Below are positions 1,004 to 63,201 of a stretch of 64,000 bases of DNA, in pieces. A program made the position numbers and the translations under genes. Source of the stretch: an uncultured Rickettsiales bacterium (lineage in GTDB: Bacteria; Pseudomonadota; Alphaproteobacteria; Rs-D84); assembly GCA_947176385.1 (NCBI GenBank), contig CAMWQN010000002.1:8245-72244 (forward strand), written 5' to 3'. The notes beneath the pieces are model-generated. The model ran no database searches. It saw nothing but the letters and a program-made list of their open reading frames with translations, and was not told the DNA's origin. The stretch's first letter is position 1. Every line of letters starts with the position of its first letter.

Positions 1004-1699
1004 ATGAAGAAAACTCAATTGATTATCGTATTGGCGGCTATATTCATAACCGTGTCACACACCAAATTATACGCAGACGCCTGTACAAACCTGGGGGCAA
1101 CAACCGGTGCCACATGTTACACTGGCAATCTGGCATCAACAAACATACGGACAGCTACGAACTGTACCAGCGCATCATCAGGATGCACATACAAGGCATG
1201 CAGTAACACTTGTCGTTGTATCAGCACCGCATGTCCATCAAATACAACTAATTGCTCTAGCACCACATGCAACCCAATATGGGGCGACATAGACAGTTCT
1301 ACACATATTCAAACCGGCACCAACCGCGAGCCAGACACATCCAACAACTGTAAATGCGAAAATCAAACAGACATCAATGGAAAGGTAATAAATGTATATC
1401 GTTGTGCGTCTGGATATTATGACACCAAAACAGGCATACAGCTTATTGGCGGCAAGCCATCATGCGAACAATGCCCATCACTGGGAAACAATAATGTCCC
1501 AGGACAATCTAATACAGGTGTAACAAGCAATCCAGCCAACAAAGGCATTACATCATGCTATATCCCATATAATACGGAAATAACAGATAATACCGGCACA
1601 TACATATTCTATAAAACCGGTATTCTTGCTACCAGTGGTGGATGCAGCTATTCAAATATTGGTGGGACTATAGATATGCCACAACTGCCAATGCCATAA
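1004..1699 (+). CDS. Small secreted cysteine-rich protein, paralogue of 21885-22580 and 40216-40890
   Basis: N-terminal signal peptide and many Cys residues. It carries the shared C-terminal module CxxGYY..C.QCP...SCYIP..DNTGTY..C.YS. Confidence 0.8.
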   Translation: MKKTQLIIVLAAIFITVSHTKLYADACTNLGATTGATCYTGNLASTNIRTATNCTSASSGCTYKACSNTCRCISTACPSNTTNCSSTTCNPIWGDIDSSTHIQTGTNREPDTSNNCKCENQTDINGKVINVYRCASGYYDTKTGIQLIGGKPSCEQCPSLGNNNVPGQSNTGVTSNPANKGITSCYIPYNTEITDNTGTYIFYKTGILATSGGCSYSNIGGTIDMPQLPMP

Positions 1700-1815: not shown

Positions 1816-2547
1816 ATGACAAACCAATTTCACAGAAACTTGAACCGAATGGCGCTGTTTACGGCATTATTGGCAATTGGTCTGATACTGTTTCGGGCAC
1901 AGTTTCTGCAAATTGCGATATCAAACCTGTATCTGAATGGCGTAATCATTGGCGTTACATTATTTGGAATTGGGCTGTGCTTTGTCGAAATGTTTAAATT
2001 ATTGCCAGAATACAAATGGTTACGCGCATACGCGCGCGGTCGCCGTCGCATTGAATTGCCGCCCCAGTTATTGCGTCCAATTGCAATCATGTTGGCATCG
2101 CGTCCACGTCAGATTTCTGCATCTGGCTTAAACAACATGATGGATATGGTTTTATTAAGAATGGAAGATTCACGTGAATCAATCCGATACATAACAAACA
2201 CCCTGATATTCCTGGGATTATTGGGTACATTCTGGGGATTGATTTTAACCGTTGGCGGATTTGCAGATTTGATGGCAAATCTGAACTTTAATGATGAATC
2301 TGTTATGCTGGCAATGCAACAGGGATTGTCCAAACCATTGGCAGGCATGGGTACCGCATTTACCAGTTCGCTGATGGGACTGGGCGGCAGTTTGACCATC
2401 GGCTTCCTGGGATTACAGGTACAACTGGCACAAAATTCAATATTTAATGAATTAGAAGAATACTTTGCTGCGCACACACGCGTCGCCGCGCCAACTGAAT
2501 CTGTGGATATATTCACAGATGTGAATGTGGAATCTGCACAGCAATAA
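1816..2547 (+). CDS. MotA/TolQ/ExbB-family proton-channel protein
   Basis: Four predicted TM segments. Motifs LGLLGTFWGL and GMGTAFTSSLMGLGGS are typical of the MotA_ExbB family. Confidence 0.75.
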   Translation: MTNQFHRNLNRMALFTALLAIGLILFRAQFLQIAISNLYLNGVIIGVTLFGIGLCFVEMFKLLPEYKWLRAYARGRRRIELPPQLLRPIAIMLASRPRQISASGLNNMMDMVLLRMEDSRESIRYITNTLIFLGLLGTFWGLILTVGGFADLMANLNFNDESVMLAMQQGLSKPLAGMGTAFTSSLMGLGGSLTIGFLGLQVQLAQNSIFNELEEYFAAHTRVAAPTESVDIFTDVNVESAQQ

Positions 2548-2577: not shown

Positions 2578-3690
2578 ATGCTAAATATACGTTTTCGCAA
2601 CCAGACAAACACATGGCCGGGCTTTGTTGACCTGTTTTCAAATTTGGTTATCATTTTGATATTCTTGTTAATTGTGTTTGTATTTCTGTGGACAACAACC
2701 AGCGTATTTAACAAAAGCACCGGTGCAAAAACCGTTGCGGAATTAAAGCAAACAAATGCTGCCCAGGCTGAAAAAATCGAACAAATGGTCGCAGACGAAG
2801 AAGAAGCAAAACGTCTGTTAATCCTGGCACGCAAAGAACTGGAAAATCTGGAAACAAACAACGCAGCACTGAACACAGAAATCCAAGAAATGGATTTAAG
2901 TATCGAAGATTTGATTTCTGCATATGAAACCAAGGTTGTCGAACTGCAAACCCAGGGCACCAATATGCAGCAAACAATCACGGCATTAACCGAACAATTA
3001 AACCAGGCAAAATTGGATAAACAGCGTGCATCCGAATTGGAACAGGAACGCAAGCAATTACAGGATGAAATGAACACCCAGCGAATGGCACTGTCTGACC
3101 AACTGGCAAAATTGCAAGCGGCATTGGATGCAGCCGAAGAAAAATCCCGCAACCAAGAAGTTGAATATGTCGAAATGTCAACACGCCTGAACAAGGCATT
3201 GGCGGACAAGGTTGCAGAATTAAACAACATGTCAAAATATCAGTCGGCATTCTACAAGGCTATCAAAGAAGCATTGGGCGACAACAGCGCCATTAAACAA
3301 GAAGGCGACCGCTTCGTATTGCCCAGTGATATTTTGTTCAGCAGTGGTTCATACACCATTTCACCCGAGGGTAAAAATCAACTGCGCATGATTGCGAATG
3401 TTATCAAGAATCTGGAAAGCGAAATTCCATCTGACGTCAAATGGATTATCCGTGTTGATGGGCACACAGATTCCAAGGCGGTAATCCCAGGCACACGTGG
3501 ATACAGAAACAATTTGCAATTATCATTATTGCGTGCAACCGCAGTTGTTGATGAATTGGCACGTGCGGGCGTCAATCGCAACCGTATGTTACCCAGTGGA
3601 TTTGGCGACCTGCATCCATATGCACCAGGCAACACGCCAGCAGATTTGCAAAAGAATCGACGCATAGAATTACAATTAACCAATCTGTAA
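2578..3690 (+). CDS. MotB/OmpA-like protein with a long coiled-coil linker
   Basis: N-terminal plug/TM region is WPGFVDLFSNLVIILIFLLIVF, with Asp preceding the TM as in MotB. A Q/E/L-rich coiled coil of about 200 aa follows. The C-terminal OmpA-like peptidoglycan-binding motif is RVDGHTD..NLQLSLLRA..NRRIELQ. Confidence 0.75.
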   Translation: MLNIRFRNQTNTWPGFVDLFSNLVIILIFLLIVFVFLWTTTSVFNKSTGAKTVAELKQTNAAQAEKIEQMVADEEEAKRLLILARKELENLETNNAALNTEIQEMDLSIEDLISAYETKVVELQTQGTNMQQTITALTEQLNQAKLDKQRASELEQERKQLQDEMNTQRMALSDQLAKLQAALDAAEEKSRNQEVEYVEMSTRLNKALADKVAELNNMSKYQSAFYKAIKEALGDNSAIKQEGDRFVLPSDILFSSGSYTISPEGKNQLRMIANVIKNLESEIPSDVKWIIRVDGHTDSKAVIPGTRGYRNNLQLSLLRATAVVDELARAGVNRNRMLPSGFGDLHPYAPGNTPADLQKNRRIELQLTNL

Positions 3691-5745: not shown

Positions 5746-8208
5746 TTACATTACGATATCTTCGCAATCTGGTCCCTGGGTTTGAACATCACAACTTTGT
5801 TTTTTGCCAATGCCCAAGAATCCGCCTTTCTTGGTACAACTCTGTGTAGAAATCGTTGTACACACATGGCATGTACGGTTTTCGCGATTGAATAATGCAG
5901 ATACAGTTTTGGTAACACCACTGCCTGCAGTTGTTGTATATTGCGATTCCATATTTGCAGCCTGGCTCATCAAATCAGACTTCGCCATACCAGCACTGAC
6001 ATCATAACTGATTGCATATGGTGCCGTCAATGGGGTATCAACCGCCGCGGTGCCAACACCGGCACTGCCACCATTTTGTGCAATCTTTTGACACATATAT
6101 TGCGCCTGGTCAGCCGATGCATCCTTGGTCGCATCTGCGATTGCCTGATTCAGTTTCGCATTATAGTTATTTTGCGCCTGACGCAACGCGGACACTGCAA
6201 TCTGCATTTTAACCTGGGTCAACAGGTTCGGGAAACGCCCTGTGGTTTTATCATTTGCCTTGCCCGTGATTTGTGACAGGTTACGTCCATTCACACAGAA
6301 TTGAATTTCTGGATCTTGTTCAATCATTTCAATCGTACGATTGATTGTACCGGCGATATTATTCAATTCTTCTTCGATTGATGACATAATGCCATCAGCA
6401 TTGGCAACATCTGCATTGCGATTGCGTACCTGGGTCAGGTATTCCTGAACACCGATTTCGCCCGGTCCCAATTTAGTTGTATTATCTTCGCCAACATCTT
6501 TTGTGCGACCAGTTGCATCACCCATTTTGATACTGCCGAATGAAATCATACCGGTTACGCGATATATATCACCATCCTTTTGTGAACGCAAAGAACCAGT
6601 TCCCATCGTATCGTCAGTCGCAAAACGGTTGCAATCGGTGGTACTGCCACAAACTTCTTCCATTTTTGCATCAACAATATTTTGACACTGTTCCAATGCA
6701 GCATTATCAATATTCAGATACAGCCCCATCAACATAGAATCCAAATCATCCATTGAAAATGCCGGATTATTCTGTTTGCAAACAACCAGTTTATCCAATG
6801 GGCAAATATCGTGGATATAGTCATAATCCATACCCAAACAATTTTCGAAATTCGGACCGCAACGATTTTCATCGGTAAAGCAATCTTTGACCTCTTGCGT
6901 ACAGGCATCGACACGCATTGCAGCCAATTTATCTTTGACATATCCCCAGATTAACGGTTCCATACGTTCACAAGGATCAATTTCGACCTTGCAAAAACTG
7001 CGCACCATATCCGGACGGGACAAGCATGCGTCCATAGTATCTACACCCTTGCCTACTATATCATCTCTACATGCGGTCTGAATACATTGTGAAATTGTAC
7101 TTAAACATGACTGACGGAATTTAGATTCAGCCTGATTTTCTGCCAGGCGGATTGTTGGCGCAGCCTCGCGCAGGAAAGCCGGCCATACTTCATCACGCAC
7201 GACCAAGCATTGGTCCAAAACATGTTCGCAAATAAAACGCTTTGATTCCAGCATTTCCAACGTTGATGCTGTGATATCATATTTATTAACAGTTGCAACG
7301 GTTGTATTCGCGGTGGACTTTGCCTTTTGATTCTGCATATTTTCCGACGCGATTGTCGAAACACAATTTTCCCAACCATTACCACAGGCATCATCAGTCT
7401 GCATGCACTTTTTAAATTCAACCATGCATTGACCCAGGTTATATTTGTTCGCAGAATCAAAACTTTCTTTTAATGCAGTGCGAACCTCGCCCTGGGCGGC
7501 GGCTAATTCAATTTCTGCCGCAGACTTCTTTTCAGCCAGGCTGTTTTTAAATCCTTCGCAGTCGGACACAATCTGACGTGCATATAATTGATGCAAGAAA
7601 TTTGTATCTTTTTCACAGTTGGCTGGAATTTGTGCCAGGCAAACCTCTTCTGCCGCTGCAAATAATGCAGTACCTGTTTTGGTTGAAATATCGTTTATGG
7701 TTTCTTCATCATCATCGTCGTCATACAGATTGCTGTTAAACAGCGCCATTAAATCTGCACGCTTTTTTGATTTTGTTTCAGCTGCCGATAACTGGTCAAC
7801 CTTTACTAAATTACCATTTTCATCATAACGACGTTCACCAGTAAATATAATATCCGCCTGGGCACCAGCTTTGACCTTTTCCACCTCTATCGTGCGGATG
7901 CGTTCTGCTTCGACCAATATATCCTGGATTTCAGAAAATTCTTTTTCATACTTTGCACTGTCATTACTGCATGCGCAACTGCCACCATTTGTGTTATCGG
8001 CAATACAGAATTGATCCAGACATCCGAAATACGCGTCATAACATTCCTGCTGATAAAGTCCTGTTGCCGTAACCTTGTTACGAACAAAAGTCCCCTTTTG
8101 AATTGCAGATTGTTTTCCGGTATTTTTGGTGGTTGCAGCATAACATGCGGGCATCATAACAATACCCGCAATTATCATAGCAATACCAACAAATGTATTT
8201 CGCTTCAT
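5746..8208 (-). CDS. Large secreted cysteine-rich coiled-coil protein, core family member (820 aa)
   Basis: Signal peptide present. N-terminal motif is CYDAYFGCLDQFC, with conserved Cys pairs (GQCMVEFKKC, CEHVLDQC, RQSCLSTISQC, DACTQEVKDC) and a C-terminal CHVC..C..C tail. Confidence 0.85.
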   Translation of the reverse strand: MKRNTFVGIAMIIAGIVMMPACYAATTKNTGKQSAIQKGTFVRNKVTATGLYQQECYDAYFGCLDQFCIADNTNGGSCACSNDSAKYEKEFSEIQDILVEAERIRTIEVEKVKAGAQADIIFTGERRYDENGNLVKVDQLSAAETKSKKRADLMALFNSNLYDDDDDEETINDISTKTGTALFAAAEEVCLAQIPANCEKDTNFLHQLYARQIVSDCEGFKNSLAEKKSAAEIELAAAQGEVRTALKESFDSANKYNLGQCMVEFKKCMQTDDACGNGWENCVSTIASENMQNQKAKSTANTTVATVNKYDITASTLEMLESKRFICEHVLDQCLVVRDEVWPAFLREAAPTIRLAENQAESKFRQSCLSTISQCIQTACRDDIVGKGVDTMDACLSRPDMVRSFCKVEIDPCERMEPLIWGYVKDKLAAMRVDACTQEVKDCFTDENRCGPNFENCLGMDYDYIHDICPLDKLVVCKQNNPAFSMDDLDSMLMGLYLNIDNAALEQCQNIVDAKMEEVCGSTTDCNRFATDDTMGTGSLRSQKDGDIYRVTGMISFGSIKMGDATGRTKDVGEDNTTKLGPGEIGVQEYLTQVRNRNADVANADGIMSSIEEELNNIAGTINRTIEMIEQDPEIQFCVNGRNLSQITGKANDKTTGRFPNLLTQVKMQIAVSALRQAQNNYNAKLNQAIADATKDASADQAQYMCQKIAQNGGSAGVGTAAVDTPLTAPYAISYDVSAGMAKSDLMSQAANMESQYTTTAGSGVTKTVSALFNRENRTCHVCTTISTQSCTKKGGFLGIGKKQSCDVQTQGPDCEDIVM

Positions 8209-8242
8209 ATTAAGTATTCCTGATATAAATCCGTTGGTTTTA

Positions 8243-21884: not shown

Positions 21885-22580
21885 TTATTCATAATAGCAA
21901 CGGCTGCCTGCCGGAACAATCTGATATACACCTGTAACATCATAACCTTGACTTTCGGTTAAATAGCAGCCTTGGATTGTTTCATTTGCCCCAGGGTCTG
22001 ATTCCCCTGCTTTTGTGGTGGCACTCATTGGACACTGCGTACATCCCGTCATTCCCATTGCACCAAAACCCTCAATATAATTTTCCTTAATCGCGGAACT
22101 GGAACCATAAAAACCTGCAGCGCAACGATGTTTTGAACGTTTTTCCCACGTACAGGTACTGGTATTACATTCGGTCCACGTATTTGTCTGATATCCATTC
22201 CAAGAATCTTTCCAGGCATCCTCGTCATACTCAATTTCTGAATTTGGGTCACATGTCTTTGCCACACTGCACGGTTGGCATACATATACACCACCATTTC
22301 TATTGCTGCACCCCATTGCCACAAAATCTGGGTCCAACGTCAGGATATAGCCATCTTCGCACATATGACATATCTGAAATTTTCCGGCTTTACCAGTTGA
22401 TTTATTTATATAGCACAACGAATACGGAAACATATACTGTTTACAATGTGCAATATTCTGTGCGGGTTCTGCAATTGATGCACACGTTTCGTTATCAGAT
22501 GGCGCCATTCCGCATTGTGCATATGCTAATTCGGTCGTTAAAAATGTTGACATTGTAACGATTAAGAGTTTTTTATTCAT
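21885..22580 (-). CDS. Small secreted cysteine-rich protein, paralogue of 1004-1699 and 40216-40890
   Basis: Signal peptide present. The shared C-terminal module is RCAAGFYG..GCTQCP..GCYL..D.TG.Y..C.YE. Confidence 0.8.
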   Translation of the reverse strand: MNKKLLIVTMSTFLTTELAYAQCGMAPSDNETCASIAEPAQNIAHCKQYMFPYSLCYINKSTGKAGKFQICHMCEDGYILTLDPDFVAMGCSNRNGGVYVCQPCSVAKTCDPNSEIEYDEDAWKDSWNGYQTNTWTECNTSTCTWEKRSKHRCAAGFYGSSSAIKENYIEGFGAMGMTGCTQCPMSATTKAGESDPGANETIQGCYLTESQGYDVTGVYQIVPAGSRCYYE

Positions 22581-23095: not shown

Positions 23096-25858
23096 TTAGA
23101 ATTTGTAATTTACCCCTATATTTAATTCCATATTTGAATAGTCTGATGCTGTTCCATATTTTGCAGATAAATAACCATCAAAAGCCCTACCCAAAGTGAC
23201 TGATAGCCCGCATTCCAATTGAGCGACATTGAAGTCTTCGACTGATTTTATATCGCCAATATCACTTATGTTCACATTATTCCCTTTGGTTGATGTAATC
23301 AAATATGAAGGTCTGATGAATAAATCTATTGCTCCTAATGATTGTGAAAAAGTAATACCAAAATCTGCCAGAATCTGATTTATATTATCATACTCAACCG
23401 TTCGTCCATAGACATCGGTCAAACTATCCAAGGAGAGATTTATATATGTTATGCCAGCCACAGGAGCAAATTTAAAGCCAGTCCCAACATCAATTAAATA
23501 TTGTGTTTTAAGCATTATGCCTGTTTGCGTCCCGGAAAAATCTGTCATGAATCCATCATCTGTTTTGACCTCAGACTGTAATAATCCACCATAAACCCCA
23601 GCAAAAACATTAAAGTTTTTAGGATTATAACGCATATAGCCACCAAATATTTGGCTGTGACCGTCTATCCAACTTTCTAAATCGGCATGAATTTCTTTGG
23701 CTTTACCAGAGAAAGAATGTTTAGCCTCTCGTATTGAACCCATTACTCCCATAGTCCAATTGTTGCCCAGCGATTTGTTGTATCCGAAATCACCCCCGAA
23801 TACCTTTGAATCCATTTCTGCAATCGTATCATTCTTTATTTGGGCAAAAACAGGTGTTATCCATATATTGCTGTTTTTCGGTACATAAAATGCGCGATTC
23901 ATTGAATTATGCGTTTGATCTAACATTGCGCTTTGCATGGCGGCATATGCCACTATTTCTGGATAAGAACGTACAATGTGCGGTAAATCTGGCTCAATAT
24001 CATTATTATCGTCATTATTATCATTATTGTCATTAAAGTCGCCATCATAATCAGGATTTTTGATATTATTCATTTCCAATGCCCAGGTTTTGGCGCTTCC
24101 ATCATAGAAATTCACATCATACATATATGGGCTGCCGAATACGCGAAATACGCTGAAAGAATTGTCATTTCCCTGACCAGTAGCCGTCGCAAACACAATA
24201 TCCTGTTTGCCACGAATATCCGTATCATCTAATGCATGGACCACAAGCTTTGTTTGCCCCGTAACATCCCCATCTATATTTAGAATATCAGCCGTCATAT
24301 CGGCTGGATTTACATTCAGATGAATATAGGAATTGCTTTGCGTAATCAATGCACCCAGACGAACACTTTCAATATACGTGTTTGCCATATCAAATGTGGC
24401 GTTATTCAATGTCATAATTGGGTATTTATCGTTTGACAGGAATTGTCCTTTGCCATATATGCCATTATCAAATTTCATGACGGCATTATTTATATTTATG
24501 TTACCCGCGTTAATAACAAAATTGTTGATATATAACGCCCCTGTTCCATCACCACTGATATTAATATCATATGGGTTCGCGCCATCTATGTTGTCATTAA
24601 AAGTATACGAACCCATATTTTGCAAATCAAAGTTTAATGCCTTACCATTCGTACCGCCCATATATATGGCATTATAATTAACACCATTTTTATCAATTAT
24701 ATGATTTCCACTGAACTTGTAATTATTATTATCGACACGAAATGATATGTTATTTTCCGAATAAATCGCACCACCACATGCATCGCCATTTGCGGAATTC
24801 GCGTAATTGTTAATGAAATTGCCGGATATTCTGTCTATTTGTCCCAATGTATAAATTGCACCACCCATTGCCTGGGATTCTCCGACCGCATAGTTATTGA
24901 TAAAATCCGCCTGGATATTGCTTAGTACCGTTGATGTGCCGGGCAGGATGCTATAAAACATCGCACCACCGCTGGCATGTGATTTAGAAACAGCATGATT
25001 GTCGATAAAATTTCCTGTAATATCAGATAATTTATATTGTTCATCATTTGCATCTTGAACTATATAAATTGCGCCACCGGTAGCCGCTTGGTCTGCATTA
25101 ACCGAATTGCTGATAAAATCTGCATTTATTTTTCCTGGAACCCCATTAACATATAATGCACCACCACGCGCGTCCCATGTCGCATTGATATAATTTGCAA
25201 TAAAGTTTGCATTTATGCTGGTTTGTATTTCATAAGTCTTATCATTTGTTCCGTTATAAATCGCACCACCATATCCGGATTTTGAGCCTGATATATAATT
25301 CCCTATGAAATTTCCAGAAATATGCTCTATTTCACCTCGGTCACCATTGCTTCCACGGGCACTGTAAATTGCCCCACCCATTGCATAATTACTTGCAGTC
25401 ATAATTCCATTATTAATAAAATCCCCATATAATTCCCGAATAAGGCTGGTATTATGTAACGCACCACCGTCAACCGAGCTATTTATTTCATGGGACGTAA
25501 TTTTGTTTGATATAAAATCCATGTATATTTTGTTTTCCCATGTGGAAACCTGTGTGGTCTTATCTGTGGTATTACGAACATATCCAATCATTTTTCCCAT
25601 TATCGGTGTAATGTTCGCGCCAACCGACGAAACCGAATAGTTCCAGTTTTGGTCAACAATGCCATCATTGGTTTCCATATATGTGGTTATGTTACCAGGT
25701 GATGATGTTTGTTGAAAATTCATTTCATATCCACTGGGGATTGATGATTGTCCGTTCGCATATAAATAGTCCAATGTAGGCGTATAATTTTCAAAATCAA
25801 ATGCCCCAAAAGCACTGTTAACAGATAAAATAAGCGGTAATATAAATATTTTTTGCAT
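23096..25858 (-). CDS. Autotransporter with polymorphic-membrane-protein (Pmp)-type repeats
   Basis: Signal peptide present. Seven alternating FxxN / GGA[ILM] repeats (for example GNFIGNY..YGGAIYNG). C-terminal beta-barrel region ends in ..GVNYKF. Confidence 0.85.
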   Translation of the reverse strand: MQKIFILPLILSVNSAFGAFDFENYTPTLDYLYANGQSSIPSGYEMNFQQTSSPGNITTYMETNDGIVDQNWNYSVSSVGANITPIMGKMIGYVRNTTDKTTQVSTWENKIYMDFISNKITSHEINSSVDGGALHNTSLIRELYGDFINNGIMTASNYAMGGAIYSARGSNGDRGEIEHISGNFIGNYISGSKSGYGGAIYNGTNDKTYEIQTSINANFIANYINATWDARGGALYVNGVPGKINADFISNSVNADQAATGGAIYIVQDANDEQYKLSDITGNFIDNHAVSKSHASGGAMFYSILPGTSTVLSNIQADFINNYAVGESQAMGGAIYTLGQIDRISGNFINNYANSANGDACGGAIYSENNISFRVDNNNYKFSGNHIIDKNGVNYNAIYMGGTNGKALNFDLQNMGSYTFNDNIDGANPYDINISGDGTGALYINNFVINAGNININNAVMKFDNGIYGKGQFLSNDKYPIMTLNNATFDMANTYIESVRLGALITQSNSYIHLNVNPADMTADILNIDGDVTGQTKLVVHALDDTDIRGKQDIVFATATGQGNDNSFSVFRVFGSPYMYDVNFYDGSAKTWALEMNNIKNPDYDGDFNDNNDNNDDNNDIEPDLPHIVRSYPEIVAYAAMQSAMLDQTHNSMNRAFYVPKNSNIWITPVFAQIKNDTIAEMDSKVFGGDFGYNKSLGNNWTMGVMGSIREAKHSFSGKAKEIHADLESWIDGHSQIFGGYMRYNPKNFNVFAGVYGGLLQSEVKTDDGFMTDFSGTQTGIMLKTQYLIDVGTGFKFAPVAGITYINLSLDSLTDVYGRTVEYDNINQILADFGITFSQSLGAIDLFIRPSYLITSTKGNNVNISDIGDIKSVEDFNVAQLECGLSVTLGRAFDGYLSAKYGTASDYSNMELNIGVNYKF

Positions 25859-28385: not shown

Positions 28386-30977
28386 TTAAAAATTATACCG
28401 CAGTTTCAGCATTCCTGTCTGGGACGTATAGTTTTGGTGTAAATCAATATCATAATTTACAGAAACCGTCAGCCCACGGTACAACACCGACAGCCCCATT
28501 CCAAATTCACCACCCAGACGTGATAATCTGTCTGCATTTACGATATATCCTGCGGCACCTGGTATCAGAACTGTTGCTGTCACGGCATCCGACACAAAAT
28601 CATATGTTGCGGCTGCACGCAATTCGGGGTGCAACATCAATGAACGCGTCGCCATAATATCAAACGTGTACTTTAACCCTGCAACCCCGGTCAAGAAATT
28701 GTTATCCGCAGGTTCAACATGGGCAATGCCATTATTATATCCATCCTGGGTTATATACAGATAACGCACCCCGACCGATGGCGTAACCCCAGACGCGAAA
28801 TCATAGCCTAATGCCAGTTGTCCACCGTATGAATCCACATCATAATCAGACGACATATGAACACCGAACAAATCTGTATGTTCCGTATAGTCTGCAAATG
28901 TATAATTAAGTGCACCATTTATAAACCACTGGTTCGGTTTATACTGGGCATATGCAAACAAAGTATCCGTTTTTATATCTGTTTTATGACCCCCGGCATG
29001 AACATCGGTATCACCATGCGCATACCCCAGTCCAAACATGTATTTACGATTAAATGTTGCATCAACACCGAATGCAGCCCCACGTGTATCCCCATGGAAT
29101 GCACCATTCATTTTGGACCGGTTGATTAAACCGTGTGCCCAGACACCGCTGCCGATTGTGACAAAGTCACCACCACTGCGCCCGGTCGCGCCACCCGCAA
29201 TACGTGATGCGACCAGTGACAAAACCTGATTCTGGACTGTTGTTGACACAGAATGTATTACAGGTTTATTAACAGGCGCAACCTTAGCCGTTTCGGCTTC
29301 GACATATTCAATGTCACCAGATGCCAGCGCATTCTGTGCCGCAATTGATACATCCGCCAGCGGTCCACCAACATTTACCAATCCCACCAATGCAGATGCC
29401 GCCGGCACAGACAATCCGATTTCAGACACCACCTGTTCCGATTTTTTGGCAGTAATAACAACGCCATCTGCGCCATTATTTGTAACATCAAACAACAAAC
29501 CTGCATTTATACGGTCAAAGTTATTATCAGATGTAAATATTTGATACGTGCCGGCGCATGCCACATTCAGATTCAATTCTGCATTGTCACCAAAGACAAC
29601 ATCACCAAACAACCGACCAAATTCACGCGCACTGATTACATCCGCATTCACGACGCCATTGATATTGATTTCAGACTGTTGAACAACACCGGTCCCCAGA
29701 TTCAAGACAGCACCATCAGACACTTCAAACGTGCCTTCGCCCAGCACACCGCCACCCAGTGTTGTTTCACCCCCAGATATTAAAATCGTACCATTATTAT
29801 AAATATCGTTAGCATTGTTGCCAACACGATTGCCAGAAAACACATTACGCCCAGCAAGTGTGATTGTTGCATTCTGTGCGTTATAAATTGCCCCGCCCTG
29901 CGCCGCGCTATAGTGATTTGCAAACACAGAATCTGTAATTGAAGCACTATTCTCTATTCCTACATGCCCACCGGTAAATTTTCCATTTTTTATATCTGCA
30001 TTATCCAATGTGATACCACGCGCGTCATCGGCAATATTAACATTACCGCCATTGACATTCAGATTATTCAAGCCCGTATAAAATGCCCCACCGTCGGCAC
30101 CATCAAAGTCTGTAATCCGTGTTGCATTCCACGTTGCGCCATCTGTCAATGTAACTGTCGCCTGATTAACATTTAATTTATTTATATCCGCAGGCTTTTT
30201 ATCATACCCCACAACTGTATTCCCAGTCCAATAAGAATCCGCCCCAGACAATACAACGTCAACCGTCGCATCAACCGATGTTCCAGATGTGGCCTGGTCA
30301 TAATTAAATTCTATATCGCCATTAATTTTTGTACTGTGCACGCCGGATTTATTAACAATCACCTGGGCACCGCCACGTGTTATAATCGCACGTTCTGCAC
30401 CATTGATAGAAACATCACCATCTAATTCAACGATACCTTCGCTGAATGCAAGAATAGCGTTCGGCGCATCAATATTAATTTTGTCACCTGTGATTTTAAG
30501 GCTGGCTCTGTCGTCCATACTGACGTTACCACCCAAAGTCTTATTCTGAACCCAAATTCCACCATAACCCGAATTTTTTATATTAATTTCACCCCCCGTA
30601 ATATTTATATGCCCATTCTGGTCAATCCAAACAGCCCCCATCGGGTCTTTATTACCACCCACCATACTGATTGTATCGCCAGTTATATTGACAGTCCCAC
30701 CACTGGCATAAATAACATCATATCGCCCACCCAATAAATCAATCTTATTCCCAATCAAATCCAGATTTCCATTTACCACATAAACAGCATCCGATACAGA
30801 CGAAAGCCCTAATTTTATATCATCAACATCCAATACAGAATGATTGCCATTTAATACAGTAACTATTTTCAATTGACCATTATTATATTTATCATTCAGA
30901 TTTATAACATCCGCCATTGCCGGCATAACCAACAATGCCAGTAACACAGATACGGCATACAAAATATTGTGGGACAT
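28386..30977 (-). CDS. Autotransporter adhesin-like protein
   Basis: Start placed at MSHNILYAVSVLLALLVMPAMA with AAAGGAG RBS; the ORF track begins at 31040. The passenger is Gly/Asn/Thr-rich and beta-helix-like with one GGAIYN motif. The C-terminal barrel ends in ..LKLRYNF. Confidence 0.8.
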   Translation of the reverse strand: MSHNILYAVSVLLALLVMPAMADVINLNDKYNNGQLKIVTVLNGNHSVLDVDDIKLGLSSVSDAVYVVNGNLDLIGNKIDLLGGRYDVIYASGGTVNITGDTISMVGGNKDPMGAVWIDQNGHINITGGEINIKNSGYGGIWVQNKTLGGNVSMDDRASLKITGDKINIDAPNAILAFSEGIVELDGDVSINGAERAIITRGGAQVIVNKSGVHSTKINGDIEFNYDQATSGTSVDATVDVVLSGADSYWTGNTVVGYDKKPADINKLNVNQATVTLTDGATWNATRITDFDGADGGAFYTGLNNLNVNGGNVNIADDARGITLDNADIKNGKFTGGHVGIENSASITDSVFANHYSAAQGGAIYNAQNATITLAGRNVFSGNRVGNNANDIYNNGTILISGGETTLGGGVLGEGTFEVSDGAVLNLGTGVVQQSEININGVVNADVISAREFGRLFGDVVFGDNAELNLNVACAGTYQIFTSDNNFDRINAGLLFDVTNNGADGVVITAKKSEQVVSEIGLSVPAASALVGLVNVGGPLADVSIAAQNALASGDIEYVEAETAKVAPVNKPVIHSVSTTVQNQVLSLVASRIAGGATGRSGGDFVTIGSGVWAHGLINRSKMNGAFHGDTRGAAFGVDATFNRKYMFGLGYAHGDTDVHAGGHKTDIKTDTLFAYAQYKPNQWFINGALNYTFADYTEHTDLFGVHMSSDYDVDSYGGQLALGYDFASGVTPSVGVRYLYITQDGYNNGIAHVEPADNNFLTGVAGLKYTFDIMATRSLMLHPELRAAATYDFVSDAVTATVLIPGAAGYIVNADRLSRLGGEFGMGLSVLYRGLTVSVNYDIDLHQNYTSQTGMLKLRYNF

Positions 30978-31169
30978 CTCTTCTCCTTTCTTGGCAATAT
31001 CAGCGTATTTCAGTGCACCCACAAACACAATAAGAACCAAATACTAAAAAACGCCCCACCTGGGGCGTTTAAATTTTGGTTGCGCACGGCGTGCAAATTT
31101 CGAACTGATTTATTGGAAATAAGACAAAAGATTGATGTGTTAAAAAATCTGCCACTTGTTCAAGTGATT

Positions 31170-33539: not shown

Positions 33540-34694
33540 ATGCAAACAAAAAAAATTATTTCTGCGCTGGCATTGGTTGTTGGTTTGCTGGCTGCAAACA
33601 GGGCTGACGCCTGTACAGGTATCACCCTGAAATCCCAAGACGGTGGCACAGTCGTTGCCCGAACAATTGACTGGTCTGGCGCCGAAATGGATAACATGTA
33701 TGTAATTATGCCACGTGCAACAACACAAACATCACTATTGCCGAACGGTGTATCCGGCGGGATGCAATTCATCAGCAAATATGGATTTGTTGGACTGGCA
33801 GTTGAAATTCCGCAATTCGTTGTAGATGGCACAAACGAAGCAGGTTTGTCCGCCGCCCTGTTCTATTTCCCGGGCTTTGGCGAATACCCGGAATACAATC
33901 CAGCCGACAAAGACAAAAGTATTGCAGACTTTCAATTAGTATCATGGATACTGTCGAACTTTTCAACAATTGACGAAGTCAAGGCAGCAATCCAAGACAT
34001 CAGTGTCATAAATATTGACCGGCGTGCTGCAACAACACACTGGCGTATAACCGAACAATCCGGACGCCAGGCAATTTTGGAAATCGTCGATGGGGTACCC
34101 CACTTCTATGACAGCAAGGTTGGCGTATTAACAAACGCCCCAGGATATCCGTGGCACCTGACAAATCTGAACAACTATATAAATCTGACGTCTGGGACAA
34201 TGAATCCACATAAATTGGGATTTGGTTCAACAACCCTGAAATCACTCAGTAATGGTACAGGATTCCTGGGGATGCCGGGCGACATGACGTCCCCATCACG
34301 CTTTGTACGTGCTGCATTCTTTTCACAATATTCACGCCCGCAAAAATCAACATATAAAAGCGTAATGCAGGCATTCCATTTATTAAATAACTTTGATGTG
34401 CCAATCGGTGCCCAGTACGCAATTGATGACACCCCACCAAACATGCCATCAGCGACCCAGTGGACAATTGCGACAGACCTGAAGAATCACATCATATATT
34501 ACCATACAATGTATGATCGCACGATACGCAGAATTGATTTTAATGATATTGATTTTGCACGTGTTCCATACCAGGCACATCCATTGGATGAACACAACAC
34601 CCAAACAATAATTGACGTACCAATCAGCACAACCAGTAATATCCCGTCAATGAAAGAACTGGAAAAAATCGCCGAAAAAGTATTCAAGCGATAA
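33540..34694 (+). CDS. Secreted linear amide C-N hydrolase (choloylglycine hydrolase / penicillin V acylase family)
   Basis: The signal peptide ends ..NRADA, followed by the Ntn nucleophile CTGITLKS.DG..V.ART.DW. Length and motifs fit the CBAH family. Confidence 0.8.
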   Translation: MQTKKIISALALVVGLLAANRADACTGITLKSQDGGTVVARTIDWSGAEMDNMYVIMPRATTQTSLLPNGVSGGMQFISKYGFVGLAVEIPQFVVDGTNEAGLSAALFYFPGFGEYPEYNPADKDKSIADFQLVSWILSNFSTIDEVKAAIQDISVINIDRRAATTHWRITEQSGRQAILEIVDGVPHFYDSKVGVLTNAPGYPWHLTNLNNYINLTSGTMNPHKLGFGSTTLKSLSNGTGFLGMPGDMTSPSRFVRAAFFSQYSRPQKSTYKSVMQAFHLLNNFDVPIGAQYAIDDTPPNMPSATQWTIATDLKNHIIYYHTMYDRTIRRIDFNDIDFARVPYQAHPLDEHNTQTIIDVPISTTSNIPSMKELEKIAEKVFKR

Positions 34695-34787: not shown

Positions 34788-36752
34788 TCAATCAATATCC
34801 ATATTATACACAGAATACACACTTCCATTATATTCAACATTCAACGCCTTTTTTCTGGATTCTGGTATCATATCACCATATAACACATGATTTCCATATT
34901 GTACTGACAAACTGGGGTGCGTGCGCCAGTCATTATGCAACCATACGGAATATTGTCCAAATCGCATAACCCGACCACAATCAGTCAAACTGTCGGCGCC
35001 ACGCCCATACCCGATTGTCATTAAATTATCCGGACACTTGTTACGTTTACCACTGTTACCATAATTTGTATAATTTATATCATTCCAATACCCAGGTCCA
35101 ACATTCGCGCACTGCGTCGCACGTGCCGTTGCCAAATACGTACCCGCATCACACTTTATCTGACATTCATTAATCGACTGCGGTGCTGTATTATCAGGTG
35201 CACGGTCAGCATAATAATCCGGACAATCTTGACAAGAATTCCCAGACGCATACTGTCCCATCGGACATACGATTTTGCCATCAATACACACAAAATCAGC
35301 TGGACAAACCGTACACACATCACCATCACGAAAATATCCGTCATTACACCGCCAGGGGCAATCGTTACCATCAGGACTGCCTGCACCAATATAAATTGCA
35401 TTTTCCGGTGCATTTGTACATGCTTTATTATACTTAAACCGCATATACTCCCCTAAATGTACAGCATTCGCCAGATATCGACCGACGGTATCTGTCTGAA
35501 CCCAGTAAATATCAGAGCTCCAATATCTATCTCCTTGCCATGGCAAATCTTTAGTATATACGCCATCAGGTGTTTCAAACAACGCCCCCCCTATCCTACA
35601 ATTGGCAGCGTTTGTAATAAGCCCACTAACAGAATATGTAGTCACCCTTAAATTGTCAGCATTAATCAGCCTGTCCTCAGATGGCAATACAGATTCCAGT
35701 ACACCAGCATCAAATTCAGGACACCGAAACATTGTATTATTATTGCAATAATTGGCACCAGTGCACACAGAACACATATTGCCATTCAACCAATATCCAT
35801 CAAAACAATTAATTTGTGTGCTGCCGGCGGGACAAGTTGAATTCTGCGGACAGACATCACACCGATTGACATTCTTATAAAATCCTGAAACACAATCAAA
35901 ATCCGTCACAGATCTGCACGTTGAATTTTCCACAGGACACATTTCGCATACGGCACCATTATCAAAAAAGCCCGGATTACAATTTGGTGGCATACCAGAA
36001 TCGCCCGACGCATACGATAGACATTGACCATCTGAATGCCAGAACAACCCATCCGGACATTTTTGTTCCTTGTGTCCGGGACATACAACACCATCGGGAC
36101 ATGGAACACATTCTGCACCCATTTTATAAAATCCGGGGGCGCAATATTGCATATAATTGCTAATTGTCGCGATACCATCTGGACAATAATATTCACCCGG
36201 ACACTGAAAACAATGGTATGAACTTTTATAATAACCTTCGATACACGTAACAGATGAAATCGTTGAACCAGCGGGACAATGCAATTCAGCCCCACAGTCC
36301 ATACAATACGTACCATTCCAATTATAATACAAATACCCAGCACCACAACTGATTAATTTTTCACCATCACAAACATGCCCAGCACAAGACCGACACATAA
36401 ACCCATCACGAAACCAGCCGTCATCACAATGAAATGTATCGGTCCCACCCACGCATGTTGCATTATTAACACATTGTGAACAAACACCGTTATATAAATA
36501 TGTTCCAGGCATGCACGAAAATTCTGTGGGTCCTGTACATGTGCTGTTTGGTGGGCATGCCAGACATTGGTTATTACCATCTGCATAAAATCCGTCATTA
36601 CAAGAATATGTTTCACCATCACATGTTGCGTTATACATACAGTTGACACAATTACCACCAGATAAATACTGATTCACATCACATGTTGCAGCATTGGCAA
36701 CACCACCTGCGCCCACCAACAACAGTACAACAGAAACCAACAGTCGTATCAT
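34788..36752 (-). CDS. Secreted protein made of furin/VSP-like cysteine-rich repeats
   Basis: Start placed at MIRLLVSVVLLLVGAGGVANA with AAGGGGA RBS. The ORF-track start at 36782 falls inside the leader terminator. Repeats have the form C..G.Y...G.C..CP.NSTC throughout. Confidence 0.8.
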   Translation of the reverse strand: MIRLLVSVVLLLVGAGGVANAATCDVNQYLSGGNCVNCMYNATCDGETYSCNDGFYADGNNQCLACPPNSTCTGPTEFSCMPGTYLYNGVCSQCVNNATCVGGTDTFHCDDGWFRDGFMCRSCAGHVCDGEKLISCGAGYLYYNWNGTYCMDCGAELHCPAGSTISSVTCIEGYYKSSYHCFQCPGEYYCPDGIATISNYMQYCAPGFYKMGAECVPCPDGVVCPGHKEQKCPDGLFWHSDGQCLSYASGDSGMPPNCNPGFFDNGAVCEMCPVENSTCRSVTDFDCVSGFYKNVNRCDVCPQNSTCPAGSTQINCFDGYWLNGNMCSVCTGANYCNNNTMFRCPEFDAGVLESVLPSEDRLINADNLRVTTYSVSGLITNAANCRIGGALFETPDGVYTKDLPWQGDRYWSSDIYWVQTDTVGRYLANAVHLGEYMRFKYNKACTNAPENAIYIGAGSPDGNDCPWRCNDGYFRDGDVCTVCPADFVCIDGKIVCPMGQYASGNSCQDCPDYYADRAPDNTAPQSINECQIKCDAGTYLATARATQCANVGPGYWNDINYTNYGNSGKRNKCPDNLMTIGYGRGADSLTDCGRVMRFGQYSVWLHNDWRTHPSLSVQYGNHVLYGDMIPESRKKALNVEYNGSVYSVYNMDID

Positions 36753-37020
36753 CAAAATCCCCTTGTAAAAAAAGACCGTCATCAGAACACGACGGTCGGG
36801 GTGGTTCGAAAATCATCTTATCATTGATTCTGTCAGTCTTTCGGCGGAACCGTGTTTTATAACCGACAGCCCCCCGACTGAGATAGTCAGGGATAAATAA
36901 CGATACAAAGTCACAGGAAATTATTGGAATAACGATGACCTATGCTTTTGCACCGGATAAGAATAGCCTTCGACAGCCCCGAACCTGTGTCCCCACAAGT
37001 TCGTTTAAATAATAACATAA
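36753..37020 (-). promoter_or_regulatory. Structured 5' leader L4, homologous to 25859-26118
   Basis: P1 is TCGAA/TTCGA. X1:X' is CCCTGACT with AGTCGGGGGG. X2 CCACCCCGACC overlaps the terminator GACCGTC-N10-GACGGTC plus U-tract. Confidence 0.65.
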
Positions 37021-40215: not shown

Positions 40216-40890
40216 TTATGGTTTAATAGGTTCCAATTCAACAATTTCACCGCCGGTTAACCCATTGGAATATTCACAATTTTCTGTATATGTACCACTG
40301 CCAGTTGTATCTGAGAAAGATGTTCCTGCAGGCAAATAGCAACTTGTGACATATTTGCTGCCGGCTGCACTGGTACCGTATGTGCCACTGCCAGATTGTG
40401 GACATCTGGTACAACCTGATGTTCCATTGGTACTGGAACCATAATATCCTGCGGCGCAACGATATGTAGTTGATATTACAGCACAACCACCTGTACATGT
40501 GCATGAACGTCTTGCCTGTTGTTCGTATCCAGCGGTTCCAGTTGCAGTGAAACCGATATCACTGGCGCATGTACCGCATGATATGCAACATTGATACACC
40601 AGTTCATATGTAGTGTTACACGAATTGCTGAGTTCTGATATTGATACTTGTTTTCTTTCTGTGCCACTTGGGCATGATGTACAACTTTGAAAACGTATTA
40701 CATTTCCCGAACCACTTTTATAACATACATTTGTATGGTTGCCTTCCCGACATGTTGTTATTGCCTCCATTGGGGCAGCAGTACATGTTGTTGACGTACA
40801 CACGCCATTATCGAGTGAAAGTACAGCATTGGCTGGTTTTTCTATTGGCATGATTGTTATCATTGCCAATATAATTAGTTTATGTTTCAT
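40216..40890 (-). CDS. Small secreted cysteine-rich protein, paralogue of 1004-1699 and 21885-22580
   Basis: The shared C-terminal module is YRCAAGYYGSS..GCTRCP...SCYLPAGTSFSDTTGSGTYTENCEYS. Confidence 0.8.
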   Translation of the reverse strand: MKHKLIILAMITIMPIEKPANAVLSLDNGVCTSTTCTAAPMEAITTCREGNHTNVCYKSGSGNVIRFQSCTSCPSGTERKQVSISELSNSCNTTYELVYQCCISCGTCASDIGFTATGTAGYEQQARRSCTCTGGCAVISTTYRCAAGYYGSSTNGTSGCTRCPQSGSGTYGTSAAGSKYVTSCYLPAGTSFSDTTGSGTYTENCEYSNGLTGGEIVELEPIKP

Positions 40891-45892: not shown

Positions 45893-46759
45893 ATGAAAAA
45901 ACATAACATACTTTTTATAGTCTGCAGTTTCTTGGCAATGTCAACCGCACATGGTGCCCAATCATGCTCGCGTGCGAACCTGACACGATGCCTGGATTCT
46001 GCCTGTGCAATTAACGTCAGTTCAAATCCTGCAGCACGTTGTCAGTATTGTGGTACGGACTCTGCCGGCACACCACCCACCAGTGGGATGCGTAATGTAT
46101 CTGCGGGCGCGTCTGCGAAATACAACCTGACGGACAAGGAATTAAAGAACGCGCCATCTGACCCCGGCAGTCGTTATGCTTGGGCAACTGCGCAATGTAT
46201 TAACAAGGTCACAGGCTGTACCACAGATGATGTATCTGAAGCATACGATTCATTGATTGAACAATCCTGCAAGGCAGCCGGCATCAGTGCACAAATGGCA
46301 ATATTACAAGCCGAAGCACGTAAAAAACCAACTAAAACAGCATGTACGACCAGCATCCGTTCATGCATTGTTGATGCAAAACGCTGTGGCGCAGATTGGC
46401 GCGCATGCCAGACAGATGCAGATTTTGATAAATTCTTTTCCACATGCGGTGTCGAAGCCACTGGTTGCGACACATATATGTCTGCGATACGTACAGAATT
46501 GTCTGGCGCACGTAACAGCGCAATCGCCAGTGCCGCAGCAGCCGTCCAAGGTATCGTAAAGAGTTATCAAAACGCACGTGAAACAAAATTGACCGCGGCA
46601 CGCACATCATGCCACGACAACGCCAGTCGCGATACATGTATTGAAAGTGTATGCGCCAATAATATGCGCAACAATTGCAGCCCAGATTTTCCGGGCGAAC
46701 GCGTAATGGCAACACAATTGTGCAAGTTCTATGAACTGGCATGCAACGTATTAAAATAG
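45893..46759 (+). CDS. Secreted cysteine-rich protein, small divergent member of the large Cys-rich family
   Basis: Signal peptide present. Cys-pair pattern is CSRANLTRCLDSAC.., SIRSCIVDAKRCGADWRAC and DTCIESVC. Confidence 0.75.
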   Translation: MKKHNILFIVCSFLAMSTAHGAQSCSRANLTRCLDSACAINVSSNPAARCQYCGTDSAGTPPTSGMRNVSAGASAKYNLTDKELKNAPSDPGSRYAWATAQCINKVTGCTTDDVSEAYDSLIEQSCKAAGISAQMAILQAEARKKPTKTACTTSIRSCIVDAKRCGADWRACQTDADFDKFFSTCGVEATGCDTYMSAIRTELSGARNSAIASAAAAVQGIVKSYQNARETKLTAARTSCHDNASRDTCIESVCANNMRNNCSPDFPGERVMATQLCKFYELACNVLK

Positions 46760-46785
46760 TACAACCGATAAAAAGCATACTTACA

Positions 46786-63011: not shown

Positions 63012-63201
63012 GATATTTCTCTTGTTTTTTATTGACATACAAGATAGCAATATTTCATATTTTGTCAAATGATTTATAAAAACACAGGATTGCCACGTCA
63101 TGGCTTACACCATTCCTCGCAATGATAATGGGGATACACTCTGGACACTGAACTCTATAAAAAAATCCCCCAACTGGGGGATTTTTTATTGCACGCATAG
63201 A

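Follow-up and report, generated by a model that had tools for sequence, protein, structure and literature searches.

Within a 64,000-nucleotide window (the whole stretch of DNA analysed, from contig CAMWQN010000002.1 of assembly GCA_947176385.1) we describe four large cysteine-rich proteins, A, B, C and D, which form a family that is new in sequence and fold; as a general kind, exported disulfide-rich envelope proteins are known. The window belongs to a metagenome-assembled genome (MAG) of Candidatus Enterousia (Alphaproteobacteria, order Rs-D84), with genomes of about 0.9 Mb, and the genes lie in two places, A, B and C around infA (cluster 1) and D in cluster 2. It is firmly supported, though indirectly, that A-D are Sec-exported, all-alpha proteins predicted to consist of long helices, and, again firmly if indirectly, their cysteines behave in sequence comparisons as structural disulfides. 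Our tentative explanation, to which we give somewhat less than an even chance, is that A-D make up a disulfide-braced scaffold in the cell envelope. Enterousia has been placed in order Rs-D84 with genomes of <1 Mb, without a tricarboxylic acid cycle, respiratory chain or standard transporters, retaining MreB, RodA and MrdA, and with a predicted partner-dependent lifestyle (PMC12306168). That report, the only genomic paper on the lineage, names merely "hypothetical membrane-bound proteins" (PMC12306168), and in the literature on Enterousia, Rs-D84, CX6C and Cys-rich epibiont proteins the A-D family is not described.

The open reading frames (ORFs) of A, B and C coincide exactly with the three genes delimited in the initial annotation, and D, named there as a fourth core member, was confirmed by BLASTP and by alignment:

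A, 5746-8208, minus strand: 820 amino acids (aa); Sec leader, short linker and predicted all-alpha Cys ladder, 36 Cys in the mature protein.
B, 8243-10411, minus strand: 722 aa; Sec leader, Gly/Asn/Thr/Ser-rich linker and ladder with 36 Cys.
C, 10887-13328, plus strand: 813 aa; Sec leader, Thr/Ala/Ser/Arg-rich linker of about 115 aa and partial ladder.
D, 56860-59847, minus strand: 995 aa; Ala/Thr/Arg-rich linker, full ladder (38 Cys), hydrophobic hairpin and NCHKC...C tail.

Gene B lies 35 bp upstream of A in the same orientation, and the start of C at 10887 agrees with database protein P0121 (813 aa, 100% identity). When the window ORFs were compared all-versus-all by BLASTP, expectation (E) values were 1e-115 to 1e-119 for A against D, 1e-50 for A against B, 1e-48 for B against D, 1e-22 for C against D, 1e-19 for A against C and 1e-12 for B against C. 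Judged by their sequences, A-D are paralogues that separated long ago, C being the most divergent core member.

All four proteins contain an N-terminal hallmark motif, C-x-[DQ]-[AK]-Y-x2-C-[ML]-D-x-F-C-x9-C-x-C-S, whose columns are invariant in alignments of 4, 98 and 74 sequences. Its spacer had first been given as four to eight residues, which must be corrected to nine in all four aligned proteins. The motif is found at the following positions:

Hallmark motif of A, 7966-8043, minus strand: residues 56-81, C-x-D-A-Y-x2-C-L-D-x-F-C-x9-C-x-C-S.
Hallmark motif of B, 10055-10132, minus strand: residues 94-119.
Hallmark motif of C, 11304-11381, plus strand: residues 140-165.
Hallmark motif of D, 59407-59484, minus strand: residues 122-147.

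The collinear Cys ladder proposed earlier was recovered in the alignment as KYNxGxC..F.xC......CG..F.NC, CE..LDQC and RQ.CL..I..C, together with the further motifs D.C...V..C......CG..F..C.G and MCP. The plan had been taken as common to whole proteins; it holds for the N-terminal ~470 residues of C, the rest of which is another Cys-rich module of beta-strands and helices, with both the CHxC tail and the glycine zipper absent. An NCHVC..C tail and a zipper had been assigned to two proteins: the tail (N-C-H-x-C) turned out to be present in A, B and D, and a convincing zipper or hairpin in B and D only, the zipper of A being merely vestigial. Protein A ends in N-C-H-V-C...C...C-E-D-I-V-M and B in the CHVC motif, the glycine zipper and then C-x5-C-E-D-V-N-M, so that the orthologues of A and B have a conserved carboxy-terminus, C-E-D-[IV]-x-M. 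The two hydrophobic segments are:

Glycine-zipper segment of B, 8297-8449, minus strand: approximately residues 655-705, between CHVC...C and the terminal C-x5-CEDVNM; kept in B orthologues.
Hydrophobic Gly-rich helical hairpin of D, 57103-57261, minus strand: residues 863-915; Kyte-Doolittle 19-residue window up to 2.06.

Residues 863-915 of D thus appear hydrophobic enough for a two-helix membrane hairpin.

Signal peptides had been proposed for the family, and leaders of the Sec type can be read from the sequences of A-D, with a positive n-region, a hydrophobic core and an AxA-like site (putative cleavage, marked by a slash, at ...CYA/A in A, ...ALA/A in B, ...ANA/A in C and ...ANA/A in D). 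Leader sequences are variable among orthologues, yet the n-, h- and c-regions and the AxA-like site are always present. No lipobox Cys is conserved where cleavage is predicted in the orthologues of any of the four proteins, and a lipoprotein reading of A (MPAC/YA) was rejected because that Cys occurs in just 2% of its orthologues. The linkers are of low complexity yet carry short conserved motifs, KQSAIQxGTTVRTKV in A, VRVGVxRMSMAG in B, AAVRD..S.SR and NTFGTGYN in C, and ARAATTQKVINSGTKV, repeated in some cases, in D; such motifs could be docking or beta-augmentation sites. The D linker motif, written as ARAxxxQKV(I/V)xxGTKV, reaches three copies in some homologues (e.g. P0306), and the motif of A is related to it.

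The case for structural disulfides, first put forward from the density of paired cysteines, is built on conservation, paired gain and loss, parity, spacing, repeated modules, the Cys contrast with other exported proteins and a DsbA-family gene near cluster 1. Within orthologue groups the conservation of Cys is 0.96 in A, 0.99 in B, 0.87 in C, 0.93 in D and 1.00 in E (the gene next to C, listed below), compared with 0.33-0.62 for other residues, and each of the 36 Cys of B is conserved in at least 95% of orthologues. Variable cysteines co-vary in pairs: 569/576 (phi 0.86, spacing 7) and 783/815 (phi 1.0) in A, 629/645 and 961/990 (both phi 0.97) in D, and 671/682 (phi 0.92) in C. Mature A has an even number of Cys (36 in 90 of 104 orthologues), as D mostly does; in C the number is mostly odd, the mode of 29 being found in 40 of 82 orthologues. 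Adjacent Cys are separated by a gap of exactly 7 ten times in A, eight in B, five in C and eleven in D, when about one is expected (about 1.2 for the counts of 8-11; P<=0.002). This i/i+7 excess extends to the cluster 2 proteins F and G, is weaker in H and E, and is absent in I and in the protein encoded at 34788-36782 (all described below). A 22-residue module, C-x6-C-x4-6-CG-x2-3-[FWY]-x1-2-C, is present twice in A, D and G and once in B and F, and represents an internal duplication (z = 7-10 versus shuffles). The Cys content of A-D is 3.8-5.0% (family range 3.8-7.3%); that of other exported proteins in the window is 0-0.8%. In the structure model of B, predicted helices hold 23 of the 36 Cys and the others are at helix ends or in loops. 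The other genes in and near cluster 1 are:

infA (IF-1), 10550-10795, plus strand: TIGR00008, E value 2.7e-25; housekeeping gene between the B-A and C-E units, outside the family.
E, 13372-14088, plus strand: 238 aa, predicted to be exported, 9 invariant Cys (two C-x6-C pairs); 44 bp downstream of C and co-oriented with it.
DsbA-family thiol-disulfide oxidoreductase, 14883-15707, plus strand: membrane-anchored, FSCPYC; PF01323 (E value 4.7e-21) and PF13462 (E value 2.2e-22), above Pfam cut-offs.

The DsbA-family gene lies 1.5 kb from cluster 1 and is near the cluster in many relatives at a variable position; its product is the presumed oxidase of the A-D family. In relatives RecO and Dsb move together, and their position relative to the cluster changes. 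The odd Cys parity of C and of E, which are adjacent and co-oriented, suggests by parity and synteny alone that the two proteins are joined by an intermolecular disulfide. Membership of E in the family was rejected, since the family hidden Markov model (HMM) does not match it; E is kept as a syntenic, co-inherited, non-homologous partner.

AlphaFold2, run with the 98- and 74-sequence alignments, supports a common long-helix architecture. The model of B (m29258d8c6664) has a mean predicted local distance difference test (pLDDT) score of 72 and a predicted template modelling (pTM) score of 0.42, and its core (residues 110-450 after trimming) reaches pLDDT 85-92. Helix accounts for 76% of this model, in which individual helices run to 55, 45 and 49 residues, and confidence is low in its last ~100 residues (glycine zipper and tail). 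The model of C (m9cdd2e2951ac; mean pLDDT 76, pTM 0.50) has long helices as in B over the N-terminal ~470 residues, then a distinct C-terminal region with a small Cys-rich beta module and more helices. The stretches labelled coiled coil in the initial annotation do correspond to very long predicted helices (45-56 residues); the label itself is less apt, and "long helices" fits better.

That no characterised family could be recognised from the sequence was borne out by searches of Pfam, NCBIfam, PHROGs, Protein Data Bank (PDB) sequences and profiles, and Foldseek. Neither the single proteins nor 55 diverse members scanned individually gave a Pfam match above cut-offs, no Pfam family recurred among the 55, and no family protein matched NCBIfam above cut-off. 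PHROGs returned only a family of unknown function on the Gly-rich tail of B (E value 3e-5), which is not meaningful. PDB sequences were matched neither by a single protein nor, at E<=10, by the 98-sequence profile. In Foldseek searches of the PDB the best hit of the B model was the alpha-actinin rod 1hci (E value 2.1, TM score 0.09-0.11, root-mean-square deviation 47 A); that of the C model had an E value of 1.7 and a probability of 0.75, which is not significant, and is a locally plausible 64-column match to a TNFR-like Cys-rich module in the C-terminal region. One model searched against BFVD gave a best E value of 0.55. Sub-threshold similarities in Pfam and NCBIfam were seen at the C-terminus of B, to Gly-zipper_Omp (E value 0.0076, 16.6 bits against a cut-off of 25) and Gly-zipper_YMGG (0.0098, 16.0 against 28.9), the zipper similarity reaching 1.7e-4 in one homologue, and in the D hairpin, to ApoL (5.5e-5, 23.2 against 25.9 bits), SseC (0.007, 16.4 against 30.2) and NheB (0.003, 16.6 against 500). 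As all of these fall on Gly/Ala/Val-rich hairpins, they were judged compositional and rejected as homology.

Among named proteins the nearest is MDE6250575.1, encoded in a MAG labelled "Alphaproteobacteria bacterium". A has at least 1250 homologues, and three homologue searches gave more than 900 matches each, all "hypothetical" and none with a Pfam domain; an exhaustive profile search gave 948 clusters at 50% identity, of which 438 were at E<=1e-30 and not one had a name. A scan of GTDB species representatives yielded 529 confirmed loci, of which the best 80 underlie the orthologue and synteny counts given here. These 80 are all Candidatus Enterousia or gut Alphaproteobacteria/"Rickettsiales" MAGs, from human, mouse, chicken, rabbit, deer, yak, sheep and other hosts, and include a circular genome of 958,618 bp (L054). 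So far, as judged from these sequence searches, the A-D family has been seen only in the gut alphaproteobacterial lineage Rs-D84/Candidatus Enterousia.

A, B, C and E have 1:1 orthologues in essentially all 80 species-level genomes, and in those of the 80 loci that extend far enough the order E-C-infA-B-A is retained almost without exception (infA holds its position in about 78 of 80, and E is syntenic with C in 65 of 80). A second block, RpoA-L17-D-TM358-H-I-G-F, is conserved in metagenome contigs, and orthologues from gut species of mouse, human, bird and ruminant are 60-80% identical. Ratios of nonsynonymous to synonymous substitution rates (dN/dS), computed against a relative at about 87% identity (L081), were 0.077 for A, 0.069 for B, 0.118 for C and 0.104 for E; those of comparison genes were 0.115 (RecO), 0.130 (MscS), 0.109 (Dsb), 0.046 (infA) and 0.033 (ClpX). 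With ratios of 0.07-0.12 and intact genes in about 80 species, these are not decaying pseudogenes, a fate the initial annotation had allowed for. By this measure A, B, C and E are functional genes under purifying selection at the level of housekeeping genes, not pseudogenes and not antigens undergoing rapid diversification.

Terminator-like hairpins follow infA (10799-10814), E (14093-14109, strong), rplQ (60009-59990) and D (56854-56832), and promoter-like sites and Shine-Dalgarno sequences matching consensus lie upstream of C and D. The likely expression units, read from these signals, are B-A, infA, C-E and D, the last predicted to be monocistronic, between two intrinsic terminators and directly after rpoA-rplQ. 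Co-transcription with infA or rplQ was rejected because intrinsic terminator-like hairpins end both of those genes. The cost of the family is about 15 kb, which in a 0.96-Mb genome amounts to about 1.6%. Conservation, strict retention of four paralogues, canonical promoter, ribosome-binding-site and terminator signals and this genome cost together suggest a housekeeping-type role for A-D, rather than that of a variable surface antigen.

The mechanism that we tentatively favour has five steps, of which the first three draw on sequence, evolutionary or model evidence and the last two we infer. Each protein would be exported by Sec through a cleavable, non-lipoprotein signal peptide, and would then adopt a long-helix, all-alpha fold around the five-Cys N-terminal motif and the repeated 22-residue modules. 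Its 30-38 Cys, many of them i/i+7 on one helix face, would be oxidised, presumably by the neighbouring membrane-anchored DsbA-family enzyme, the disulfides stapling neighbouring helices together. The four paralogues may then form a hetero-assembly of fixed stoichiometry in the cell envelope, held to the membrane by the glycine zipper of B and the hydrophobic hairpin of D, with C joined to E by the putative intermolecular disulfide. Such an assembly would serve as a structural scaffold stabilising the envelope of a minimal-genome anaerobe. Co-retention of the four paralogues and E, housekeeping-like constraint, the anchors in B and D and the share of the genome are our reasons for proposing an assembly of fixed composition with a core role.

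Several points weigh against the scaffold. The lineage is reported to have no respiratory chain (PMC12306168), which makes re-oxidation of DsbA for about 70 disulfides per A-D set difficult to account for, and the cysteines could bind metals instead. A and C have no membrane anchor, and the hydrophobic hairpins are as similar to pore-formers and translocators as to anchors. Peptidoglycan and rod-shape genes are retained (PMC12306168), so that the need for a Chlamydia-like protein corset is not evident. The hetero-assembly is deduced from parity and synteny alone, and pTM scores of 0.42-0.50 limit confidence in the overall shape, the disulfide geometry and the Cys pairings.

Some of the same observations would also suit proteins that act on a partner, a possible but doubtful explanation and the main rival of the scaffold. 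On the surface or released, A-D would attach to, insert in or form pores in a bacterium, a protist or the host epithelium, and so feed a metabolically dependent, Patescibacteria-like lifestyle, the disulfides hardening the rods and the hairpins of B and D entering the target membrane. Dense disulfides are typical of extracellular proteins; clusters 1 and 2 lie among other large exported proteins, including autotransporters and an ankyrin-repeat protein; and the lineage is predicted to be partner-dependent and devoid of standard transporters, "hypothetical membrane-bound proteins" having been proposed for cell-cell interaction (PMC12306168). The best, though sub-threshold, matches of the D hairpin are membrane-inserting regions of ApoL, SseC translocators and NheB, and colicin Ia (E value 6) is among the non-significant Foldseek matches of C; the pore-former matches, however, all score under the curated cut-offs and are confined to Gly/Ala/Val segments of low complexity. 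There is no evident route of secretion across the outer membrane: no beta-barrel and no signal of the type I secretion system kind is seen, and the window has no type II secretion system genes. Housekeeping-level conservation with no sign of diversifying selection (dN/dS 0.07-0.12; 60-80% identity across hosts) is unusual for proteins in contact with a host or prey. The gut lumen is a reducing environment, which disfavours exposed disulfides.

We see a slim chance that A-D are periplasmic and non-structural, the cysteines serving as metal ligands (storage or buffering of Zn, Fe or Cu) or as a redox sensor or reservoir of thiols and disulfides, to which C-H-x-C might contribute. The conserved N-C-H-[VIFK]-C opens a predicted helix and is reminiscent of redox or metal sites of the CxxC type, the hallmark motif contains five Cys, an odd number, and large-scale oxidative folding is hard to explain in an anaerobe reported to have no respiratory chain (PMC12306168). 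Even parity and pairwise gain and loss of Cys are, however, what disulfides predict, metal sites more often having three or four ligands, His, Asp or Glu among them; i/i+7 spacing along very long helices fits stapling between helices; a DsbA-family oxidase is present; and four conserved paralogues of 720-995 aa would be a costly metal buffer for a 0.9-Mb genome.

It is very improbable that A-D are a highly diverged branch of a known helical family, such as Sel1-like/Hcp proteins, spectrin-like rods, apolipoprotein/ClyA-type alpha-pore-formers or glycine-zipper lipoproteins. Long-helix proteins are hard to match by Foldseek, the pTM scores are modest, and there are the weak similarities to Gly-zipper families, ApoL, SseC and NheB; but these cover only the low-complexity hairpins and never the Cys-ladder core, the 98-sequence profile found nothing at E<=10 among all PDB sequences, the 55 diverse members had no Pfam family in common, and the best Foldseek E values were 2.1, 1.7 and 0.55 at TM scores of about 0.1. 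An artefact, be it chance ORFs, chimeric assembly or pseudogenes in decay, has next to no probability and is refuted by the conserved loci and by dN/dS. At least 80 species-level genomes, and hundreds of independent assemblies obtained from many hosts, carry intact orthologues; expression signals are canonical, and AlphaFold predicts the core regions with confidence.

Among the known systems that A-D call to mind is the chlamydial OmcB/OmcA complex with MOMP, which likewise comprises several different exported, unusually Cys-rich envelope proteins retained together in a host-associated bacterium of reduced genome, and in which disulfides brace the envelope, as they may for A-D. The statement in the initial annotation that the two have no sequence relationship stands, because neither A-D nor 55 diverse homologues match Pfam or NCBIfam. 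OmcB is built of beta-rich repeat domains, whereas the predicted fold of A-D is all-alpha with long helices; the A-D set has no evident counterpart of the lipoprotein OmcA (no lipobox); and Enterousia, unlike the chlamydial system, keeps peptidoglycan and rod-shape genes (PMC12306168). The comparison would be one of function only.

Mitochondrial twin-CX9C/CX3C (CHCH) proteins also place Cys whole helical turns apart on one face and staple it by disulfides to a neighbouring helix, in an intermembrane space topologically equivalent to the alphaproteobacterial periplasm. They are proteins of about 10 kDa with two disulfides, oxidised by Mia40, whereas A-D have 720-995 aa, about 18 putative disulfides and CX6C (i/i+7) spacing, often chained as C-x6-C-x6-C-x6-C, and would be oxidised by a DsbA-type enzyme. 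No CHCH-type match appeared in Pfam scans of A-C or of 55 homologues, and the likeness is one of principle only.

The Helicobacter Hcp proteins (Sel1-like) are a multi-paralogue family of a gut-associated proteobacterium, as A-D are, and are secreted and all-alpha, with regularly spaced Cys pairs that lock helix pairs. Hcp proteins have a regular 36-residue repeat and form a variable antigen family; A-D are much larger, with very long helices and 22-residue CG modules, and are conserved at housekeeping level. Sel1 (PF08238) was not matched at E<=1 by A-C, at E<=0.001 by D or at E<=0.01 by the 55 homologues. The GxxxG-rich C-terminal segment of B is reminiscent of Gly-zipper_Omp/YMGG lipoproteins (Rickettsia 17-kDa antigen, SlyB/Pcp), which suggest by analogy how a Gly-rich hairpin might sit in a membrane leaflet. 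A-D differ from them in scoring below the gathering thresholds of PF13488 and PF13441 and in having no lipobox; the zipper of B is a ~50-residue appendix to a 720-aa protein, and A and C have none. A precedent for the scaffold idea is CrvA of Vibrio cholerae, a Sec-exported, helix-rich protein that forms periplasmic "periskeletal" filaments; it differs from A-D in not being Cys-rich, and homology between them was not detected. Beyond the hydrophobic hairpin of D there was no sequence or Foldseek match to the ClyA-Hbl-Nhe, ApoL or SseC groups, and Foldseek did not superpose the B model on the three-helix repeats of spectrin or alpha-actinin rods. A phage or mobile-element origin found no meaningful PHROG or BFVD match, the context being chromosomal, housekeeping and syntenic.

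The divergent relatives suspected in cluster 2 proved to be of two kinds: F and G show weak but significant similarity to the family, and H has the Cys-spacing signature only. The three genes are:

F, 45893-46759, plus strand: 288 aa, predicted to be exported, 21 Cys; one module copy of 22 residues, C-x6-C-x6-CG-x2-W-x2-C.
G, 46741-48255, plus strand: 504 aa, predicted to be exported, 20 Cys; two module copies; family HMM E value 1.7e-6.
H, 53414-55639, minus strand: 741 aa, predicted to be exported, 29 Cys; glycine-zipper-like segments; syntenic with D.

Protein F matches the family HMM with an E value of 1.7e-4 and has a module similarity of z = 10 (z = 5-10 for F and G together) and six i/i+7 Cys gaps when 0.8 are expected. 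From sequence similarity F and G are distant relatives of A-D; H was rejected as a member, having no match to the family HMM, and was kept for its i/i+7 Cys signature.

Two other Cys-rich proteins of the window, I and the product of 34788-36782, were rejected as relatives because their Cys spacing is of another, EGF/furin-like kind. In relatives, I (49144-52854, plus strand; 1236 aa, exported, 81 Cys) shares conserved synteny with D, H, G and F. It has a CarboxypepD_reg domain at the N-terminus (E value 5e-14), Cys-rich units that have undergone a large tandem duplication within the protein, EGF-like repeats, segments resembling glycine zippers, and an end of OmpA-like appearance (C-terminal tail, GHTD...LS..RA); its sequence points to a peptidoglycan-anchored, Cys-rich envelope protein. 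The other (minus strand; 664 aa, exported, 58 Cys or 8.7%) has furin/VSP/GCC2_GCC3-like modules, C..C....C.G...C..G[FY][YF]..G..C..CP, and no Pfam match at 1e-4. The gene at 48209-49045 (plus strand) encodes a GDSL-lipase-like protein with an N-terminal mini Cys-knot (CTTNSDCGSEQICDNGVCKNK); G ends in the same mini Cys-knot (CTTDSDCGDGETCNNRVCKKK), with 36% identity over 61 aa in BLASTP, and the knot appears to be a small module common to the two proteins, possibly one for targeting or docking. TM358 (55753-56829, plus strand; 358 aa), always between D and H in related contigs at 34-40% identity, has transmembrane helices at its N-terminus, a long, acidic stretch of low complexity and a conserved domain at the C-terminus, with no Pfam match.

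Upstream of cluster 1, 1816-2547 (plus strand) encodes a MotA/TolQ/ExbB-like protein (borderline, E value 3.6e-4), followed at 2578-3690 (plus strand) by a coiled-coil protein with an OmpA-family C-terminal domain (E value 1e-14); they may be a Tol/Mot-like envelope pair. The exported 1232-aa product of 41208-44906 (minus strand), with an N-terminal ankyrin repeat (borderline in Pfam, E value 1.5e-4), a hydrophobic/Gly-rich segment and a beta-barrel-like C-terminal region, may be a novel surface-display protein. Two autotransporters, 23096-25858 and 28386-31040 (both minus strand; PF03797, E values 2e-18 and 2e-29), contain hardly any Cys (0.1-0.2%); their presence marks the organism as diderm, and their composition shows that cysteine is avoided in its ordinary surface proteins. 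The ~0.9-Mb genome also encodes an exported choloylglycine-hydrolase-family protein (33540-34694, plus strand; bile-salt-hydrolase-type, PF02275, E value 8e-63), as would fit adaptation to the vertebrate gut. Two further sets have no Pfam match: a tandem paralogue pair, 62382-63101 and 63202-63849 (both minus strand; 64% identity, E value 2e-93), and a dispersed, weakly related trio (E values 1e-7 to 1e-9), 1004-1699 (plus strand), 21885-22580 and 40216-40890 (both minus strand).

Candidatus Enterousia/Rs-D84 bacteria are widespread in human, mouse, bird and ruminant guts, none has been cultured, and the family bears on how they hold their envelope together and obtain metabolites. Because it takes up about 1.6% of the genome, is conserved like core repair and channel genes and has no relative in curated libraries of sequences or structures, it stands out as a strong candidate for an apparatus, structural or interactive, that defines the lineage. 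A biochemical puzzle comes with it: each A-D set would need about 70 disulfides, yet the anaerobe reportedly has no respiratory chain through which DsbA could be re-oxidised. The hallmark motif and the 22-residue CG module are clean signatures for a new Pfam/DUF family and for detection in metagenomes, and the A-D proteins would be good antigens for visualising the uncultured cells. A more far-reaching idea, speculative and unlikely as we rate it, is that A-D and E together with F, G and H make up a novel type of organelle in the envelope, peculiar to Rs-D84: a lattice or conduit of helical, disulfide-stapled hetero-oligomers. If so, it would need oxidative folding by a Dsb pathway working without a respiratory chain, a new redox solution, and would physically link an anaerobe with few transporters to a partner cell or stand in for envelope-tethering systems that are missing.

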